Notes: generated by a model from the letters alone, not told the origin. Positions 12 to 61,576 are shown, counted from the first letter of the stretch. The stretch: DNA of 64,000 bases from Candidatus Levybacteria bacterium RIFCSPLOWO2_02_FULL_37_18 (GCA_001784115.1 MFPD01000009.1:7520-71519); one strand, 5' to 3'. Numbers and translations: made by a program.

Positions 12-467
12 GTGAAGCAATGCGAAGATCAACTGACAAAAGGAAGTACTAGAAAATTCCTCACTCAGACGTACGGATATATTGGCTTGGCTTACTCTCT
101 TTCCAGAAAATACAAACTGGCAGTTTGTATGTTTGCTATGGCTAGTCACACTGCTGAGAAAATTTTCTCCCCGCCCAATCCTTATAATTTTTCCCACGTT
201 TTAAGTCTTGCGGAAATTGTATCTTTTTCCTACGCGGATGCTCTGCCTTTTTACCAACGCGCATTTGAGCTAAACGAAGGATTAAAAAATGAAGATTCGC
301 TCGATAAAGTTGAACATGAAATAAATCGTGAAAATATTATTGAAAGCGCAATTAATCACGGACTATTGGACTTTGCCAGACAAACGCTTTTAACAATTAC
401 CGACTTTCCTAATAACGGAGAAAAAGAAACCGCAAGACTCTGGATTTTTGACCGGTACCCCATATAA
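12..467 (+). CDS. hypothetical protein; the ORF track starts it at GTG 12 and the frame is open to the window edge, so it may be 5'-truncated
   Basis: 151-aa ORF from the six-frame track with no recognisable motif. It ends 360 bp before the next gene. Confidence 0.3.
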   Translation: MKQCEDQLTKGSTRKFLTQTYGYIGLAYSLSRKYKLAVCMFAMASHTAEKIFSPPNPYNFSHVLSLAEIVSFSYADALPFYQRAFELNEGLKNEDSLDKVEHEINRENIIESAINHGLLDFARQTLLTITDFPNNGEKETARLWIFDRYPI

Positions 468-7333: not shown

Positions 7334-7535
7334 TGTGTTATGAATAGCTCCTTGAAAGTGAAGAGAAAGGTCCTGCAGTGCAGGATTTGATCTTTATAGA
7401 AAAACTACTCTTTGACCATTAGTACGGGTAGGCTTAACACTTTACAGTGCTTCCACCGCCCGCCTATCAACGTCGTAGTCTACAACGGGTCTCTCCCCCG
7501 ATTAAATCGGGGAACGAGATATTATCTTGAGGTTT

Positions 7536-7566
<31 letters not shown>

Positions 7567-7787
7567 AGTTAGGAATATAGCTACTCAGCGCTGCCCTTGT
7601 AAGGAACAACTGACACACCAGGGATTCCTCCAATCCAGTCCTCTCGTACTAGGATCGGATCCTCTCAAATCTCGAACGGTTATCCAGGATAGAGTCCGAA
7701 CTGATTCACATCGTTCTTAACCCAGCTCGCGTACCGCTTTAACGGGCGAACAGCCCGACCCTTGGAAGCTTCTCCACCTCCAGGATG

Positions 7788-8619
7788 CGATGCACATACT
7801 CTTTTGTTTCCAAAAGTGCAGACTATATCATCACCCCGAGTTACTCTCGGGGGTTGGCATATGATAACTCGTGTATTTTTTTATCTTGAGCTATCTCATC
7901 CGTCAGTTGACGGATTCAGTCGTTACGGGGTCAAGCTCTAGAAGACAGATGACAGAATACAGAAAACCTGCCTACCGACAGGCAGGCAGGACAGATTGCA
8001 GATAAAACAGATCAAAAACAGAAATTCTTAATAGGAGTATGTTTTCCAGTTTTTAATAAATTGCTGAAGTTGTTTAGATTCAATTTTATATCTATCAATC
8101 AGAATGTCACACAGCTTCTGATTAATACGACTAATTCTTTTTGCGAGAATTTTTACTACTTGAACATGAGTAATGAGTTCATCTGATGTTCCCATTGCTA
8201 TTTCAAGAAAACGCTTAAACTCTTTTTCAGATCTTTTTTTGCCAAATCCTTCAGCAATATGCGCTGGAATTGATTCTCCGCATTCGATTAGTTGACCTTT
8301 TAGTTTTCTATGACTCTCTGGAATTTGATTTGCTAAGTCATAAACTAGTGGCAATGCTTCCAAAGCATTCTTGTAAACTTGAAGATCTGTTACCTCTCGA
8401 ATCATGAGAATAGCGTATCATACTTCCGTACTTTCTGTTCTATCCGTTATCCGTCTTCTGTTCTCTGTCATCCGTCCTCAAAAACCGACTTCCCACGGTA
8501 TTGTCCATTGACTTTATCATAACTAGAGAAGATTCATTTAGTCAAGAGGAGTTCACCGTTATTAGCCAAATTTGCTTCAATAATTACTTATTGAAGGGCC
8601 CAAACGCTATTTGCGTTTT
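7788..8619 (-). mobile_element. group I intron-like insertion in 23S (832 nt) carrying a four-helix-bundle ORF
   Basis: Flanking exons read GATGTCGGCT | ... | CATCCTGGAGG, which matches E. coli 23S GTCGGCTC|ATCACATCCTGGGG. A group I S-element-like motif GATGATATAGTCTGC lies ~60 nt from the 3' boundary. Long ACAGAA-word inverted arms flank the ORF (7940-8000 and 8420-8480). Confidence 0.5.
8028..8405 (-). CDS. four-helix-bundle protein (TIGR02436, 23S rRNA intervening-sequence protein family)
   Basis: 125 aa with EALPLVYDLANQIPESHRKLKGQLIECGESIPAHIAEGFGKK...FKRFLEIAMGTSDEL, a family signature. It is encoded inside the 23S insertion. Confidence 0.7.
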   Translation of the reverse strand: MIREVTDLQVYKNALEALPLVYDLANQIPESHRKLKGQLIECGESIPAHIAEGFGKKRSEKEFKRFLEIAMGTSDELITHVQVVKILAKRISRINQKLCDILIDRYKIESKQLQQFIKNWKTYSY

Positions 8620-8867
8620 AGCCGACATCGAGGTGCCAAACCGCCACGTCGCTGTGAACGCTTGGTGGCGATTAGCCTGTTATCCCCGGGGTAGCTTATA
8701 TCCGTTAAGCTCCGTCGCTACCACTAGCGTGCGGAGGATCACTAACACCTGCTTTCGCATCTGCTCGACTTGTAGGTCTCGCAGTTAAGCTGGCTTATGC
8801 GTTTGCGCTATCAGTCCGATTTCCATCCGGACTTAGCCAACCTTTGTACAACTCCGTTGCAATGTAG

Positions 8868-9692
8868 GCAATATTGTTAAGAAAGTTAATCTAATTTGTA
8901 AAGAAAAGAAGTAACAATAAACGGAGATATCAACTTCTTTAGTCTACTAAAAGATGAGGCACGAATATAAATTTCTATACCATCAATTTGCCGTCTTGGA
9001 ATTGCTTCCAATCCAAACTTTTCTTTTAAAACCTGACAAAGAAGAGTAACCTCTTCGATGGTAAAATTATGAGTACATATCAATTTCCCCCAACACTCTT
9101 TTGATTTATACGATCCATCATCCATAAACCAGATAGCGAGTCCCAATTCTGTTAAAAGTTCATTTATATTTTTGGGTATTATCTTGGTTTTTGCTTGATA
9201 GAACAATTCTCTAAAGACAAGAAAGTCGGACAAGCTTAAAGTAGTGAAACCAAAACGCTCAAAGTTACCTCATCGGCATTTTTAATGCTATATTCTACTT
9301 TTAGTCTTGCTGACTTTCTATTTGGAGAAAGCTCGATATGACCATCTCCTAGAATAAGACCCACTAATACTTCCTTTTGTAAATTAGAAAGTTTTAGAGT
9401 CTTTTTATATTCTTCTAAGAGGGTTTGCCTCATCCTAGACACTTTCTATCCGAGCATTTCTGTCGGATTCTCATAGTCGCCTATGAGTTCAGACCATATC
9501 ATACTCTAGTATTAGAGCCCAACATATAGTCGTTGAGGGATCCTGCGCATTTAGCTGAAGGACTTCCCTGCTGATTAACTGCACCAGAAAGATTATCACT
9601 TCTATTTTATCAGAAGTACTTCTGGATACACCAGTTGTTCCAGCATATAGTTGGTTTGCAAATAGGAATTACTTCCTAATGGACCCATAATT
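8868..9692 (-). mobile_element. group I intron in 23S domain IV/V carrying a LAGLIDADG homing-endonuclease gene
   Basis: The 23S sequence is interrupted between GGGGAGGTTGACTCAA and CCTACATTGCAACGGAGTTGTACAAAGGTTGGCTAAGTCC. An S-element-like motif GTATGATATGGTCTGAAC sits at 9478-9495. The ORF lies in the 3' part. Confidence 0.55.
8886..9442 (-). pseudogene. LAGLIDADG homing endonuclease split into two ORFs (68 aa + 115 aa) by a TAA stop and a 1-nt frame change at 9233-9238
   Basis: Motif 1 LVGLILGDGHIE lies in ORF 9236-9442 and motif 2 LAIWFMDDGSYK in ORF 8886-9233. The two frames differ by one base. Confidence 0.7.
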
Positions 9693-9800
9693 GAGTCAAC
9701 CTCCCCAGTTAAACTGCCCGCCAGACACTGTCCCTTCGCCGGATTTTTATGCGGCAAAAAAGTAATGATTGCTCATTTCAAAGAGAGGTATTTCACTTTT

Positions 9801-9968
9801 GCTTGCACGAAGCAAAAGAAAATCCTAATTTCAAAATCCTAAATCCTAAATAAATTACACTTTCAAAAATCCAAATTTACAAACGTTTTAGAATTTTGAA
9901 CATTGTGATTTTGATATTATTTAGAATTTAGATATTAGTGCTTAGAATTTCCTTGTGCTCCGCACAAG
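9801..9968. repeat. AT-rich ~165-bp intervening-sequence-like insertion in 23S (L1-stalk / H76-78 region), copy 1
   Basis: gcttgcacgaagc...aaaatcctaatttcaaaatcctaaatcctaaataaattacac...atttagaatttagatattag...ccttgtgctccgcacaag. It is closed by hairpins and is almost identical to 11140-11298. Confidence 0.6.
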
Positions 9969-10149
9969 CTCCCTCCTATTCTCAACAGTTAAAATAAACC
10001 CTCAAATGCCAAGCTACAGTAAAGCTCCCGGGGTCTTTTTGTCCATGGATAACTAGGCCGCGTCTTCACAGCCATCTCAATTTCGCCGGGTAACAGATCA
10101 AGACAGTTATTCAGTCGTTCTACCTTTCGTGCGGGTCGGAACTCCAAAA

Positions 10150-10520
10150 GAAATTCAAAATTCAAAGTTCAAAATTGCAATGCAAAATTAAAAATTGAAG
10201 TACGTTTGTTTTTATACTCGATCGCTTTTTCAAGCCTCATAGTCGCCTATGAGTTCGGACTATATCATCCTCCACTTTATGGAATTCTGGCATGTAGTCT
10301 CTGAGGGTTCTCGCCTGAGGCGAGTCTTCCCTGCTGATTGACTCCACCAAACAGATTGTTACTTATCATCCTAGACTTAGATATCAGGATCTAAAGTACT
10401 GTCGGATACAGAGTAATTCCAGCATATAGCCAGATTTTGCACTTTACTTTTGTAGAACTCTTTCTCGACTGTTTTTGTTCTATTCCTAAGTGCTGTATCT
10501 TTCGATACATTCGGGCAAGC
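10150..10520 (-). mobile_element. compact ORF-less group I intron in 23S (1917-1931 region, CCTTGTCGGG...|...AGTTCCGACC)
   Basis: The rRNA motif CCTTGTCGGG (~10530) and AGTTCCGACCCGCACGAAAGG (~10120) are separated by ~370 nt. That stretch contains an R-like CAGAGACTACATGCC and an S-like GATGATATAGTCCGAAC (10255-10270) ~100 nt from the 3' end. Boundaries are approximate. Confidence 0.5.
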
Positions 10521-10562
10521 TTACGTGACCCGCAAACTTTTCGCCCGACAAGGAACTTCGCT

Positions 10563-10942
10563 CGATCAGATTGCCAAATCAATCTAAATGGACTATATCT
10601 TCCCCAGTTTTTATTGGAGTCTGACGTATAGTCTCTGAGGATTCTTAGAACTTTTGAGATTCTTAAAAATTGAGACAGAGAAACATCCTTCTCCATCAAC
10701 AAACCCTACAATCCAATTTGCAGTTCCAAGTCTTTCCTGCTGATTATCTCTACTGGTATCATTGTCACTTGGTGAACTCATCTATAATTCTAAGTTACCA
10801 TAGTAGATCCAGAATTGCAAGACTTTCCAGCATATGGTCAGATTTTCATTTTCATGCCTCGGCTAGACATGGGAAATGGAGGATTCTTCCACCAAATGGC
10901 GGACATACCTCACTATGGCAGCGGAGTTTTCTTTCAAACTCT
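10563..10942 (-). mobile_element. compact ORF-less group I intron in 23S, inserted at GGU|AGCGAAGUUCC
   Basis: Joining the 5' exon ...AACTGTTCTATGGT (ending in U) to the 3' exon AGCGAAGTTCCTTGTCGGG restores the conserved CTAAGGTAGCGAAATTCC. The intron ends in G (gatcg). It has an R-like CCTCAGAGACTATACG and an S-like GGAAGATATAGTCC (10590-10603). Confidence 0.55.
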
Positions 10943-11139
10943 ACCATAGAACAGTTATAGTTACTGCTGCCGTTCACTGGAGCTTTCGCCGCGAGCCTCC
11001 CCCTTGCGAGGGTCACCCACAACGATTAACTTACCAGCACTGGGCAGGTGTCAGCCCCTATACGTTAGCTTTCGCTTTTGCAGAGACCTATGTTTTAGAT
11101 AAACAGTCGCTAAATAAACTTTTGCTGTGGCCTCGCGCG

Positions 11140-12489: not shown

Positions 12490-12650
12490 GAGATCACCAG
12501 AGGACAGAAGACAGAATAACGGAAGACGGATATCAGATGACAGAGATACAAAACATCAAGATTTTAATCCTGATCTTCTGTCTTCTGTTTCTCTGCAATC
12601 TGTCCTCTGACTTCTGTACTCTGTCCTCCGGCTCTCTCTGCTTGTCAGCC
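12490..12650. repeat. helix-25-region IVS-like insertion made of ACAGAAGACAGAA / TTCTGTCTTCTGT words forming a long imperfect hairpin
   Basis: gaggacagaagacagaataacggaagacgg...ttctgtcttctgtttctctgcaatctgtcctctg, immediately upstream of the conserved CCCTCACGGTACTAGTTCACTATCGGTC 23S block. Confidence 0.5.
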
Positions 12651-59315: not shown

Positions 59316-60165
59316 TTAGTTGTGATCCAAATTCACAGTTTCTACCATATCAATAAACCTAGACTCTATAAGCTTCTCTGCTATTATACTAAATGTATCT
59401 TTCTCTCCTGTTATGTAGAATCGATATGATGGAATCCCTTTAGATGCAATAACCCCTTCTGCACATAGAATTCTCTTAACTTGTTGTGCAATCGCTTCCC
59501 CGCTATCTAAAGTCTCAACATTAGTACCCAAAATTTCTTGAATCTGATTTTTTATGAGCGTAAAATGAGTACAACCCAACGCTATAGCGTTGGGTTGTAC
59601 TTTTATAAAAGGCTTAAGAACTTGTTTTAAAATATTTCTAAACTTATTGCTGTTAATTTCTGCTTTTTCAATAAGAGGAACAAGTTTATCTGTACCTATG
59701 TTTATTACCTCACAATCACTCGCAAACTGCTTAATTAAGTTTTTTTGATACTCCCCACTTGCCGCTGTTCGTTTAGTAGAAAGAATACCAATTCGTTTGT
59801 TCTCTGACCTTTCAACCGCAGTTTTTATAACTGGAACTGTACCCACAATGGGAATTTTGGGAAAATCTTCACGCAGTTGGTCTAAACAAGACACTGTAAT
59901 AGTATTACAAGCCAATACAATTAGCTTACAATGTTTTTTATGAGGAATTGAACTAATCCCCCCCCCTCTTAGCTAGAAAATATATTTCTTCCTCTGATTT
60001 GCTTCCATAAGGGCAATTTTTAGAATCAGCTATATAAATTGTTGATTCATTAGGCATTTGTGAGGCTATTTCTTTCCAAATGGACAAACCGCCAACCCCT
60101 GAATCTAGTATCCCAATCGGCTGATTATTATCTATCCTTGTCATCATAAACTGTGAAATTGTCAT
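59316..60165 (-). pseudogene. murI: glutamate racemase murI interrupted by a frameshift in a C9 homopolymer (59962-59970)
   Basis: The N-terminal ORF ([14 protein letters not shown]...[18 protein letters not shown]) ends at TAG right after G9 on the coding strand. Removing one G gives continuous ...[28 protein letters not shown]..., joining the 199-aa C-terminal ORF that carries the ACNT and GCTH catalytic Cys motifs. Confidence 0.6.
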
Positions 60166-60229: not shown

Positions 60230-60247
60230 GGAGAAAGGTTATTCTGT

Positions 60248-60504
60248 TGCGGGGTCGGTATCGAAACCGAACTGTGAGATTATGCAACTGTTTCTCTGAT
60301 TACTCAGAGTGTCGGACTATATCATGTCCGGTGTAACAACCGAACCTCAGCGTATAGTCTCTACGGTGTCCCCGATTAAATCGGGGTTCCCTCGGTGTTC
60401 TCCTCCAATTAAAGTAGGAATTCACCGATATAGCTGAGTTCTCTTTCATTATTACTAATAAAAGGGCCCAATTTGAGCCTCACGTGCACCTTACACTACC
60501 CCGC
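60248..60504 (-). tRNA. candidate tRNA (anticodon CAU after splicing; Ile2/Met type) interrupted in the anticodon loop by a ~191-nt compact group I intron
   Basis: 5' half GCGGGGTAGTGTAAGGTGCACGTGAGGCT (7-nt acceptor, D-arm, anticodon stem TGAGG, U33). 3' half CATAATCTCACAGTTCGGTTTCGATACCGACCCCGCA (T-loop TTCGATA; acceptor ACCCCGC pairs perfectly with GCGGGGT). The intervening 60285-60475 has a group I R-like TAGAGACTATACG and an S-like GACATGATATAGTCCGAC, and ends in G. The mature tRNA would be unusually short (~66 nt). Confidence 0.35.
60285..60475 (-). mobile_element. compact group I intron-like element of the same family as the ORF-less 23S introns
   Basis: Shared motifs CGGACTATATCAT and CGTATAGTCTCT with 10230-10300 and 10600-10640. 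Confidence 0.5.
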
Positions 60505-60616
60505 GTGTAATCTACATACTAACAAATTCAAAAACATTAGTCAATAAAAATTGCATAAAATATATAGTTAATAAATCCTTATTGACACATAGCACTATAA
60601 ATTTCATAATTAAAAC

Positions 60617-61015
60617 ATGCGTTATTCTCCATCGGTAAAGAATTCCGTCAGACAATTTCGTAGAAAAGGCTGGAGCTTAAACCAAATAAAGGCAGAAACT
60701 CGAACTCCGATAACAACTATTAGAACCTGGATTTCAGATATTGTCTTATCAAAAGAGCAGCAAGATATTTTGGAAAAAAGAATTCAAACTGCTCTTCAAG
60801 GAGGAAGAGCACGTGTTCAGACCTTATGGAAAGAAGAAAGGTTGCAGAAAGAAAAGATATTGCTTCAAAAAGGGAAAGCTAGTATTGCAAATTTAACTCG
60901 AAGGGAATTTTTTATTGCAGGAATCGCTCTCTACTGGGCTGAAGGGTTTAAAAATCTACATGAACGCCGGCTCGGCTTTTGTAATTCAGATCCGGAAATG
61001 ATTCTTTTTTGCTAA
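60617..61015 (+). CDS. HTH-domain protein fragment (possible remnant of a transposase or integrase-associated gene)
   Basis: N-terminal FRRKGWSLNQIKAETRTPITTIRTWI has a resolvase/IS30-like HTH pattern. It ends abruptly (MILFC), next to a tRNA gene. Confidence 0.3.
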   Translation: MRYSPSVKNSVRQFRRKGWSLNQIKAETRTPITTIRTWISDIVLSKEQQDILEKRIQTALQGGRARVQTLWKEERLQKEKILLQKGKASIANLTRREFFIAGIALYWAEGFKNLHERRLGFCNSDPEMILFC

Positions 61016-61321
61016 GAAAAGCACTTAGAATAAACAAGGAAAGCCTAATAGCGAGGCTTACTCTCAATGCGTCCTATAAATCATGAACTAAAGAGTTGGA
61101 GGAATATTGGTCTAATTTTACTGGTATACCATTACATCGATTTACAAAAACCTTTTATCAAAATACAGCATGGAAGAAACAATATAACACTAGAAACAAT
61201 ATAACACTGACAATTATCATGGTGTATTAAGAATTCATGTAAAAGATAGTCTTAATTGTTTATTAACAATGCGAGGGTGGATTCAAGGAATGAAATCTGC
61301 TAAAATGAGCAAGTGTGTTTA

Positions 61322-61393
61322 GCCAGGGTAGCTCAATGGTGGAGCAGAGTCTTCATAAGGCTACGGCTGTGGGTCCGAATCCCACCCCTGGTA
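61322..61393 (+). tRNA. tRNA-Met (anticodon CAU; elongator or Ile2 type)
   Basis: GCCAGGGTAGCTCAATGGTGGAGCAGAGTCTTCATAAGGCTACGGCTGTGGGTCCGAATCCCACCCCTGGTA. Cloverleaf with a 7-bp acceptor stem and anticodon loop TTCATAA. It lacks the initiator features C1-A72 and three G-C pairs in the anticodon stem. Confidence 0.8.
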
Positions 61394-61576
61394 CATAGTC
61401 CCGAGTGGCGGGGCGGTGCGAATATATGACGAAAACAAATAAACCCGTTACAATGTACATACATGAGCAAAACAAACACAATGATGGAAATGGTGCAACC
61501 CTCTTTTCGGAGGATTGTGATTTAGTTTCTAAACACTATTTCCCAAATCTCCTTTCAGGAGGTTTTTTATTGAAAA

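Follow-up and report, generated by a model that had tools for sequence, protein, structure and literature searches.

This analysis concerns a split tRNA gene in a 64,000-nucleotide (nt) stretch of DNA (the window) from Candidatus Levybacteria bacterium RIFCSPLOWO2_02_FULL_37_18 (GCA_001784115.1, MFPD01000009.1:7520-71519). The gene lies on the minus strand at 60247-60505, running from C1 to the discriminator A73 in the family alignment A1, and encodes a tRNA(CAU) with a group I intron in its anticodon loop, at the 33/34 junction. It is probably the functional initiator methionine tRNA of a Levybacteria-like member of the Microgenomates (Patescibacteria). Exon 1 (60476-60505, 30 nt, CGCGGGGTAGTGTAAGGTGCACGTGAGGCT) covers tRNA positions 1-33 and includes a 13-nt D arm, and exon 2 (60247-60284, 38 nt, CATAATCTCACAGTTCGGTTTCGATACCGACCCCGCAA) covers positions 34-73. 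CCA is not encoded after A73, where the genomic bases are CAG. The intron (60285-60475, 191 nt) holds no open reading frame (ORF), starts with CAAAUUGGGCC and ends with CAGUUG, the terminal omega-G being base 60285. Cleavage after U33 and after this G would join the exons as GAGGCU-CAUAAUCU and give the anticodon loop CUCAUAA in a mature tRNA of 68 nt, with a D arm of 13 nt and a T loop, UUCGAU, of 6 nt. Only the 33/34 junction yields both a U at position -1 and an omega-G. The window tRNA has neither the 7-nt T loop nor the D arm of about 17 nt of a canonical tRNA, and both deviations are kept in its subclade.

A preliminary description of the window had placed the two exon blocks and the 191-nt insert on the minus strand, with junctions at U33/C and omega-G/C34. 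The sequence agrees with this placement, and the ligated sequence is known as an uninterrupted gene with 67/68 identity. The gene ends proposed there (60504 and 60248) shift by one base each, the true start being C 60505 and the true end 60247, and the length of the mature RNA is corrected from about 66 to 68 nt. In place of the acceptor pairing GCGGGGU/ACCCCGC and the T loop UUCGAUA, comparative data favour C1xA72 followed by G2-C71 to G7-C66, a T stem of 5 base pairs (bp), UCGGU/ACCGA, and the 6-nt loop. The earlier register, with its 4-bp T stem, is the better one by single-sequence minimum free energy (-28.4 vs -25.4 kcal/mol), but comparative counts speak against it. Alignment column 64 pairs with column 48 in all 79 sequences (CG 62, GC 10, UA 7), whereas with the alternative partner, U8, 10 are unpaired and no two-sided changes occur; the gene therefore begins at C60505 with C1xA72. 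The window tRNA region was 100% identical in six independent assemblies, including GCA_001783775.1 (MFNN01000033.1), which were found via contigs encoding the same MurD protein. This identity indicates that the odd features of the tRNA are not sequencing or assembly errors.

The split gene is poorly visible to standard tools. ARAGORN without intron search listed tRNA-Ala and tRNA-Met (61322-61394) in the window and not the split gene, and with intron search at default settings it found no tRNA in the unspliced region. At the relaxed threshold -ps80 with intron search it returned a tRNA-Leu(caa), whose junction would put A at -1 and make U the last intron base; this candidate was rejected because it breaks the U-1/omega-G rule. 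The hand-spliced exons are called tRNA-Met(cat) at default settings. The preliminary description had proposed a covariance-model search as a check, and Rfam Intron_gpI (RF00028) matches 60293-60485 on the minus strand above threshold, with 54.9 bits vs a gathering score of 50 (E 5.5e-13, 1 kb searched). The earlier claim that a group I intron divides a tRNA(CAU) gene is supported. When all 64 kb of the window were searched with Rfam at gathering thresholds, the tRNA intron was not among the results, which did include two introns in the 23S rRNA gene. The intron thus scores above gathering in 1 kb and is missed in 64 kb, a filter effect through which routine annotation would overlook introns of this type.

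A P1-P9 structure was drawn by hand and mapped onto 46 relatives, and a covariance model (R1) was built from the same alignment. R1 scores the window intron at 213.6 bits, with every modelled pair standard and none broken. Over the 46 relatives P1-P9 is 93% paired and 27 of the 50 pairs change on both sides; slid controls reach 36-47%. P1 (60465-60479; all helices are on the minus strand) has a 5' strand of exon GGCU and intron CA, an AAU loop and a 3' strand UGGGCC, so that exon bases G30 G31 C32 U33 pair with an internal guide. Its exon pairs are 97.8% paired, and 46/46 relatives share the U33.G wobble at the 5' splice site, its G partner not being imposed by the search. As P1 is built from G30 to U33, it competes with the anticodon stem in the precursor. 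Intron bases 1-2 (CA) equal the first two bases of exon 2, a repeat that allows exchange of the P1 extension for P10 and also explains the alternative junction of ARAGORN. P2 (60443-60464) has 9 bp and a GUAA tetraloop, with two-sided changes at all nine pairs. The P3 strands, CUCAGC (60433-60438) and GCUGAG (60346-60351), are 99.6% paired, with two-sided changes at three pairs. P4 (60392-60428, UCGGUG/CACCGA, 98.9% paired) encloses P5 (60401-60419, UCCU...AGGA), which is 86.4% paired with three covarying pairs. P6 and P6a (60365-60391) consist of GG...CC around CCCCGAU/AUCGGGG; P6 is 100% paired, and P6a was drawn from a single-sequence fold and differs in length among relatives. P7, the guanosine-binding helix, joins GACUA (60355-60359) to UAGUC (60315-60319), the latter inside the conserved AUGAUAUAGUCCGAC. 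Both strands are invariant in 46/46 relatives, so that the pairing is consistent with a helix and covariation is uninformative for P7. The P8 hairpin (60326-60345) shows two-sided changes at all six pairs, and only 76% of its cells pair because MAFFT aligns this length-variable hairpin poorly. P9 (60294-60309, 6 bp) is 98.9% paired with two-sided changes at five pairs and, like P2, is capped by a GUAA tetraloop. Judged from its sequence, the window intron is a complete group I ribozyme with all modelled helices intact, and splicing is predicted. Patescibacteria introns that interrupt genes for tRNA-Asn and for tRNA-Asp have been reported to splice in vitro (PMC13011429).

The same arrangement is widespread in relatives. 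One genome per species was scanned for GATATAGTC-N(15-45)-GCATAA-N(20-30)-CCCCGCA, which matched at least 119 loci (given L numbers below). At least 105 species genomes hold the same split gene, with 81 distinct spliced tRNAs and 105 distinct introns; over these loci the introns are 166-253 nt long except two, one of which has 657 nt. Four records of Nitrosomonadales and Methylophilaceae type (L013, L034, L054, L069) have no intron upstream and were set aside as chance pattern matches, and L015, L021, L038, L076, L097 and L113 were likewise discarded as false positives of the scan. Split-gene records with a lineage name are almost all Microgenomates (Levy-, Davies-, Gottesman-, Woese-, Shapiro-, Ames-, Roizman- and Blackburnbacteria), and a few bear unrelated phylum labels. 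Among the matches listed, the closest to the locus are metagenome-assembled genomes (MAGs) of Levybacteria, and no species representative collected has an intron more than about 79% identical to that of the window; exons are strongly conserved and introns have diverged. The cloverleaf was assessed on 79 of the distinct spliced tRNAs, without the divergent L025 and L119. The cloverleaf is 96.4% paired with nine covarying pairs (slid controls 32-60%), all five T-stem pairs covary, and a sixth Watson-Crick pair of the anticodon stem, 26:44, is present in 69/79.

An intron-less gene for the same tRNA also exists. Metagenomes were scanned for uninterrupted GCGGGGTAGTGTA-N(4-7)-GCAC-NNN-AGGCTCATAATCT, and the gene was found on at least 120 contigs, at least 101 of these with a complete tRNA. 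In L190 an uninterrupted 68-nt gene (961-1028) differs by 1 nt from the predicted product of the window, is identical to the spliced L047 and scores 42.6 bits on Rfam tRNA (RF00005, gathering 29). The same mature tRNA is therefore present with and without the intron in close relatives.

Several observations were made on members of the family. The D loop and T loop covary without exception at tertiary contact 18:55 (columns 17/54 of alignment A1), which switches between A with G (37/37) and G with U or C (42/42) over the 79 sequences. Both states are seen within Levybacteria-labelled records, and T loops of the A type begin with CGC or UGC, not UUC. The 657-nt intron (L071:504-1230, minus strand) holds in P6 an ORF of 150-180 amino acids (aa) of the LAGLIDADG type (PF14528 28.8 bits, PF00961 28.0 bits). 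The tRNA-fMet introns of cyanobacteria have been reported to carry genes for PD-(D/E)XK proteins, and the tRNA-Asn introns of Patescibacteria HNH genes (PMC13011429). The introns of L085, L094, L124 and L052 have 166, 176, 178 and 181 nt, the first without P6a; they are below the reported minimum of 184 nt for bacterial tRNA introns (PMC13011429) and well under the 205 nt of Azoarcus. In L087 (Amesbacteria GW2011_GWA1_47_20) an internal deletion has left an intron of 121 nt, in which P5 runs straight into GAUAUAGUCC and which lacks P6 and P8 together with the 3' strands of P3 and P4 and the 5' strand of P7. Either an essential tRNA gene here has a dead intron, or the deletion is an artefact of assembly. 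Dozens of third-party MAGs labelled 'uncultured Gammaproteobacteria bacterium' (within L007-L125) carry tRNAs and introns that match those of Levy- and Woesebacteria fully or almost fully, and one such record, OZ246397.1, is a 615-kb chromosome, so that the label is probably wrong.

Upstream of the split gene a promoter-like site, TTGACT-17 nt-TAGTAT with a TG-extended -10, lies at 60516-60544 on the minus strand and ends 10 nt before the tRNA 5' end. It matches the consensus at 9/12 positions, and a TTGnnn-16..18-TAnnnT site ends 3-20 nt upstream of the tRNA in 71/102 related loci.

The assignment of the tRNA as an initiator was weighed against other CAU tRNAs. The window tRNA has the acceptor stem CGCGGGG/CCCCGCA-A with C1xA72 and A73, the stem of bacterial (E. 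coli) initiators, and it carries the determinants of formylation, a weak 1:72, G2-C71, C3-G70 and A73. Among the 79 relatives 1:72 is CxA in 49, U-A in 30 and never G-C, and positions 2-7/66-71 and A73 are invariant. A neighbouring canonical tRNA(CAU) (61322-61394, plus strand, 57.9 bits) is elongator-like with G1.U72. ARAGORN, which labels every CAU tRNA Met, found 173 canonical G1-type CAU tRNAs in the 240 sources scanned, including this one, and also 71 tRNA-Ile(UAU) genes in the same loci. In complete Microgenomatia genomes with an intron-less homologue, ARAGORN calls two CAU tRNAs (PMC13011429 Table S2). The initiator acceptor stem, together with a set of two CAU tRNAs of which the other, adjoining one is elongator-like, points to an initiator and not to tRNA-Ile2. 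No other CGCGGGG-type tRNA was found in the 1.6 Mb scanned (window plus fetched loci), and on this sample the split gene appears to be the only initiator-type tRNA. That the window gene is instead a functional, intron-containing elongator tRNA-Met, with the neighbouring or another CAU tRNA serving as the initiator, is unlikely. The weak first pair and initiator-type stem described above count against it; so do the other CAU tRNAs (61322-61394 and the 173 in total), which have G1 and loops UUCAUAA or AUCAUAA and show no initiator mark, and the Parcubacteria relative L025, in which a canonical initiator with A11:U24 is split at the same site. The features that would suit an elongator are at the same time those that weigh against an initiator. 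Two of the three G-C pairs expected at 29-31/39-41 are absent (A29-U41 in 77/79, G30-C40 in 79/79, G31.U39 in 79/79), position 11:24 is the elongator-type U11:A24 in 79/79 and not A11:U24, and the isotype models of tRNAscan-SE label the intron-less homologues Met(CAT), not fMet, in the entries of PMC13011429 Table S3, where the family is likewise given as Met (CAT) 33/34. Two further points belong on this side. The omega-G, which is part of the search pattern, and U-1 are partly imposed on the relatives by collection and parsing; the junction is nevertheless confirmed independently of the imposed omega-G by the intron-less genes. Promoter-like sites in the region are not more numerous than expected by chance, so that support for the promoter comes from its position.

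A tRNA-Ile2, in which CAU would be modified with lysidine and which would be the direct counterpart of the Azoarcus pre-tRNA-Ile, is very improbable. E. coli TilS uses the pairs C4-G69/C5-G68, whereas the window acceptor stem has G4-C69 and G5-C68 beside C1xA72. The tRNA-Ile(UAU) genes in 71 related loci indicate that AUA does not need a lysidine tRNA, and the two CAU tRNAs of complete Microgenomatia genomes leave no room for an initiator, an elongator and an Ile2 together, even though the anticodon itself is CAU and Ile2 (CAT) genes with 33/34 introns are listed for Acidobacteriota (PMC13011429 Table S5). The preliminary description had also raised the view that the locus is a decayed or tRNA-like integration target; such a relic, with an intron that no longer splices, is scarcely credible here. 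The short D arm, the 6-nt T loop, the failure of ARAGORN with intron search at default settings and the deleted intron of L087 could be read in its favour. However, all tRNA and intron helices are intact in the window, the position of the promoter is conserved, and the compensatory changes in the cloverleaf and in P1-P9 argue against decay. The 6-nt T loop UUCGAU is kept with compensatory T-stem changes in the window subclade (L010, L029, L047, L074, L103) and recurs in the intron-less genes L178, L190 and L193. At least 105 species thus keep the short tRNA and its intron with compensatory substitutions, and at least 120 contigs carry the tRNA uninterrupted. From this comparative record the locus is almost certainly an intact, functional, intron-containing tRNA(CAU) gene, with the initiator as its preferred identity.

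The proposed course of maturation is as follows. Transcription would start from the sigma-70-like promoter 10 nt upstream of the tRNA. In the precursor, exon bases G30 G31 C32 U33 would leave the anticodon stem and pair with the guide GGCC/G to form P1, in which U33.G would mark the 5' splice site. The core P3-P9 would fold, probably held together by the L2 and L9 GUAA tetraloops in the manner of other compact tRNA introns. Bound in P7, an exogenous guanosine would cut after U33, after which C34 A35 of exon 2 may displace the identical intron bases C+1 A+2 on the guide and form a short P10. Omega-G (60285) would then enter the G site and the exons would be ligated to the loop CUCAUAA. End processing and CCA addition would give the 68-nt tRNA plus CCA, to be charged with methionine, and C1xA72, G2-C71, C3-G70 and A73 would have it formylated and used for initiation. 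As the gene is apparently the only initiator-type tRNA, splicing would have to work in vivo.

Introns of this kind have been described before, and the arrangement is already catalogued in the lineage, the window gene being another case. Nakagawa et al. (2026, mSystems) have listed two Microgenomatia genomes with Met (CAT) 33/34 (PMC13011429 Table 1, Table S3). As far as these tables go, the window gene has the same exon family (TGCGGGGTAGTGTACGGCTGCAC...AGGCT, then the intron, then CATAATCT...CCCCGCAA; Table S3), insertion site, core motifs and intron start (caaaatgggc...), and one of the two is likewise miscalled by ARAGORN as Leu(CAA) 36/37. It differs in its host organism, a Levybacteria-like MAG, and in its subclade, where the T loop has 6 nt and the tRNA 68 nt, not 70. 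In that paper (PMC13011429) the tRNA is called Met, and its odd shape and initiator features are not discussed. Bacterial tRNA introns have four classical types, and insertion at 33/34 of tRNA-fMet is one of them (Williams 2020, bioRxiv 10.1101/2020.01.27.920355; PMC13011429). The cyanobacterial intron at this position (fMet.2Ug, Williams 2020) shares, in the account given there, an initiator-type tRNA(CAU) host, the U33/C34 site, the U.G wobble, the omega-G and a sporadic distribution with intron-less alleles in close relatives. In contrast, cyanobacterial ORFs encode a PD-(D/E)XK endonuclease, whereas the sole ORF-bearing relative here, L071, encodes a LAGLIDADG protein, and the host tRNA here is non-canonical. 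In all, 81% of bacterial tRNA introns belong to subgroup IC, to which no Patescibacteria tRNA intron has been assigned (PMC13011429); the subgroup expected of the 33/34 class would be IA in Patescibacteria and IC3 in most other phyla.

The preliminary description had seen a close analogue in the tRNA-Ile(CAU) intron of Azoarcus. The Azoarcus intron lies 3' of the anticodon, its 5' exon ending in CAU. In the window the 5' exon ends in GGCU and the anticodon is wholly in exon 2. The Azoarcus construct has a 5' exon of 39 nt and an intron of 205 nt (PMC13168695), the former consistent with insertion 3' of the anticodon, and its intron belongs to IC3 (title cited in PMC3984707). Both introns are compact and ORF-less, sit in the anticodon loop of a CAU tRNA and have P2 and P9 capped by GNRA tetraloops. 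The window intron is shorter (191 nt), and the Azoarcus host is a tRNA-Ile2 and not an initiator. The core motifs here are AGAGACUAUACG and AUGAUAUAGUCCGAC, not the IC3 motifs GUAGAGACUUGAC and GAAGAGAAAGUCCAGACC as given in PMC13011429 Table S5. The close analogy does not hold, as the acceptor stem is that of an initiator and not of the Ile2 type and 33/34 is where tRNA-fMet introns classically lie (PMC13011429); the intron of Azoarcus is an analogue in general terms only.

The 23S rRNA gene of the window (7400-10950, minus strand) holds about four or five group I introns. The preliminary description had placed the tRNA intron in the same family as those at 10150-10942. The R/S-like core motifs are indeed shared, as is a similar design of P1 and P2, but the tRNA-intron model gives the 23S matches only 24-71 bits vs 213.6 for its own intron. 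These matches, all on the minus strand, are 10221-10468 (70.9 bits), 9451-9703 (67.0 bits), 8450-8623 (42.5 bits), 10566-10731 (25.3 bits) and 7783-7920 (24.4 bits). The generic Rfam model gives 23S introns 63.8 and 51.6 bits. A special kinship with the introns at 10150-10942 was rejected, since the tRNA-intron model scores them no better than the generic one, and "same family" holds only loosely. The 23S introns share with the tRNA intron the start CAAnnAUGGG and a P2 with a GUAA loop, and differ in being longer, in their host gene and in that some hold ORFs (23S_rRNA_IVP; a LAGLIDADG_2 fragment). The matches 8450-8623 and 7783-7920 are two halves of one intron (8613-7793, minus strand), which sits between GAUGUCGGCU and CAUCGCAUCC. 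Its guide UGGGCC and its target, GGCU followed by CAU, are both the same as those of the tRNA intron, and its P2 with a GUAA loop is similar. This likeness hints at an intron that moved by reverse splicing between the 23S and tRNA genes. ORF 8028-8405 in this intron matches the 23S rRNA-intervening sequence protein family (PF05635, 63.8 bits), and ORF 8886-9233 in the 23S gene gives a fragmentary LAGLIDADG_2 match (86.5 bits) limited to profile positions 74-167. Short ACAGAAGAC/CAGAGGACAGA-type repeats occur at 12510-12600 (minus strand), in an expansion of 23S domain I, and again at 8440-8470 (minus strand), inside the 23S intron just downstream of P6.

The genes around the split tRNA are bacterial and encode TrpRS, an MFS transporter, Tgt, MurD, a split MurI, DivIC and a XerC-like recombinase. 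With the canonical G1-type tRNA(CAU), the short tRNA(CAU) makes up a conserved pair of neighbours (window 60247-61394, loci L007-L245), near which tRNA-Ile(UAU) is found often (71 calls) and tRNA-Trp sometimes (21 calls). Directly downstream of the split tRNA, murI (59316-60165, minus strand) is divided into ORFs 59953-60165 and 59316-59915, about 37 nt apart; there are two gene calls in all six assemblies, with slightly different boundaries. Between the two CAU tRNA genes lies ORF 60617-61015 (plus strand, 132 aa), also present in all six assemblies. It was considered as a free-standing LAGLIDADG remnant (motif FIAGIALYWAEG, LAGLIDADG-like string FFIAGIALYWAEGFK) and rejected, as it had no Pfam match; nor did it resemble the LAGLIDADG ORF carried by the intron of L071.

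Overall, the intron is ordinary, and what most deserves a specialist's attention is the departure of the host tRNA from the canonical shape. The short tRNA of Microgenomates has 68-70 nt, a D arm of 13-15 nt, U11:A24 and a Watson-Crick pair 26:44. We suggest only tentatively that Microgenomates use a reduced, non-canonical initiator tRNA that is possibly undescribed; a literature search for an unusual Patescibacteria initiator tRNA found no description. The weakened anticodon stem may have co-evolved with the intron, since G30, G31, C32 and U33 must alternate between this stem and P1. In that case Patescibacteria ribosomes would select their initiator less strictly than the textbook rule of three G-C pairs demands. 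The split gene is missed by standard tools, and mis-spliced as Leu(CAA) at a relaxed threshold, so that a genome looks as if it were without an initiator tRNA; such an apparent loss distorts completeness estimates of Patescibacteria. With intron-bearing and intron-less copies of the same tRNA in close relatives, the family lends itself well, as a natural series, to the study of intron gain, loss and homing. A minimal-genome bacterium is predicted to rely on a ribozyme for an essential part of its translation apparatus, and if the host tRNA is truly the sole initiator, its missing G-C pairs would bear on how reduced ribosomes recognize the initiator.

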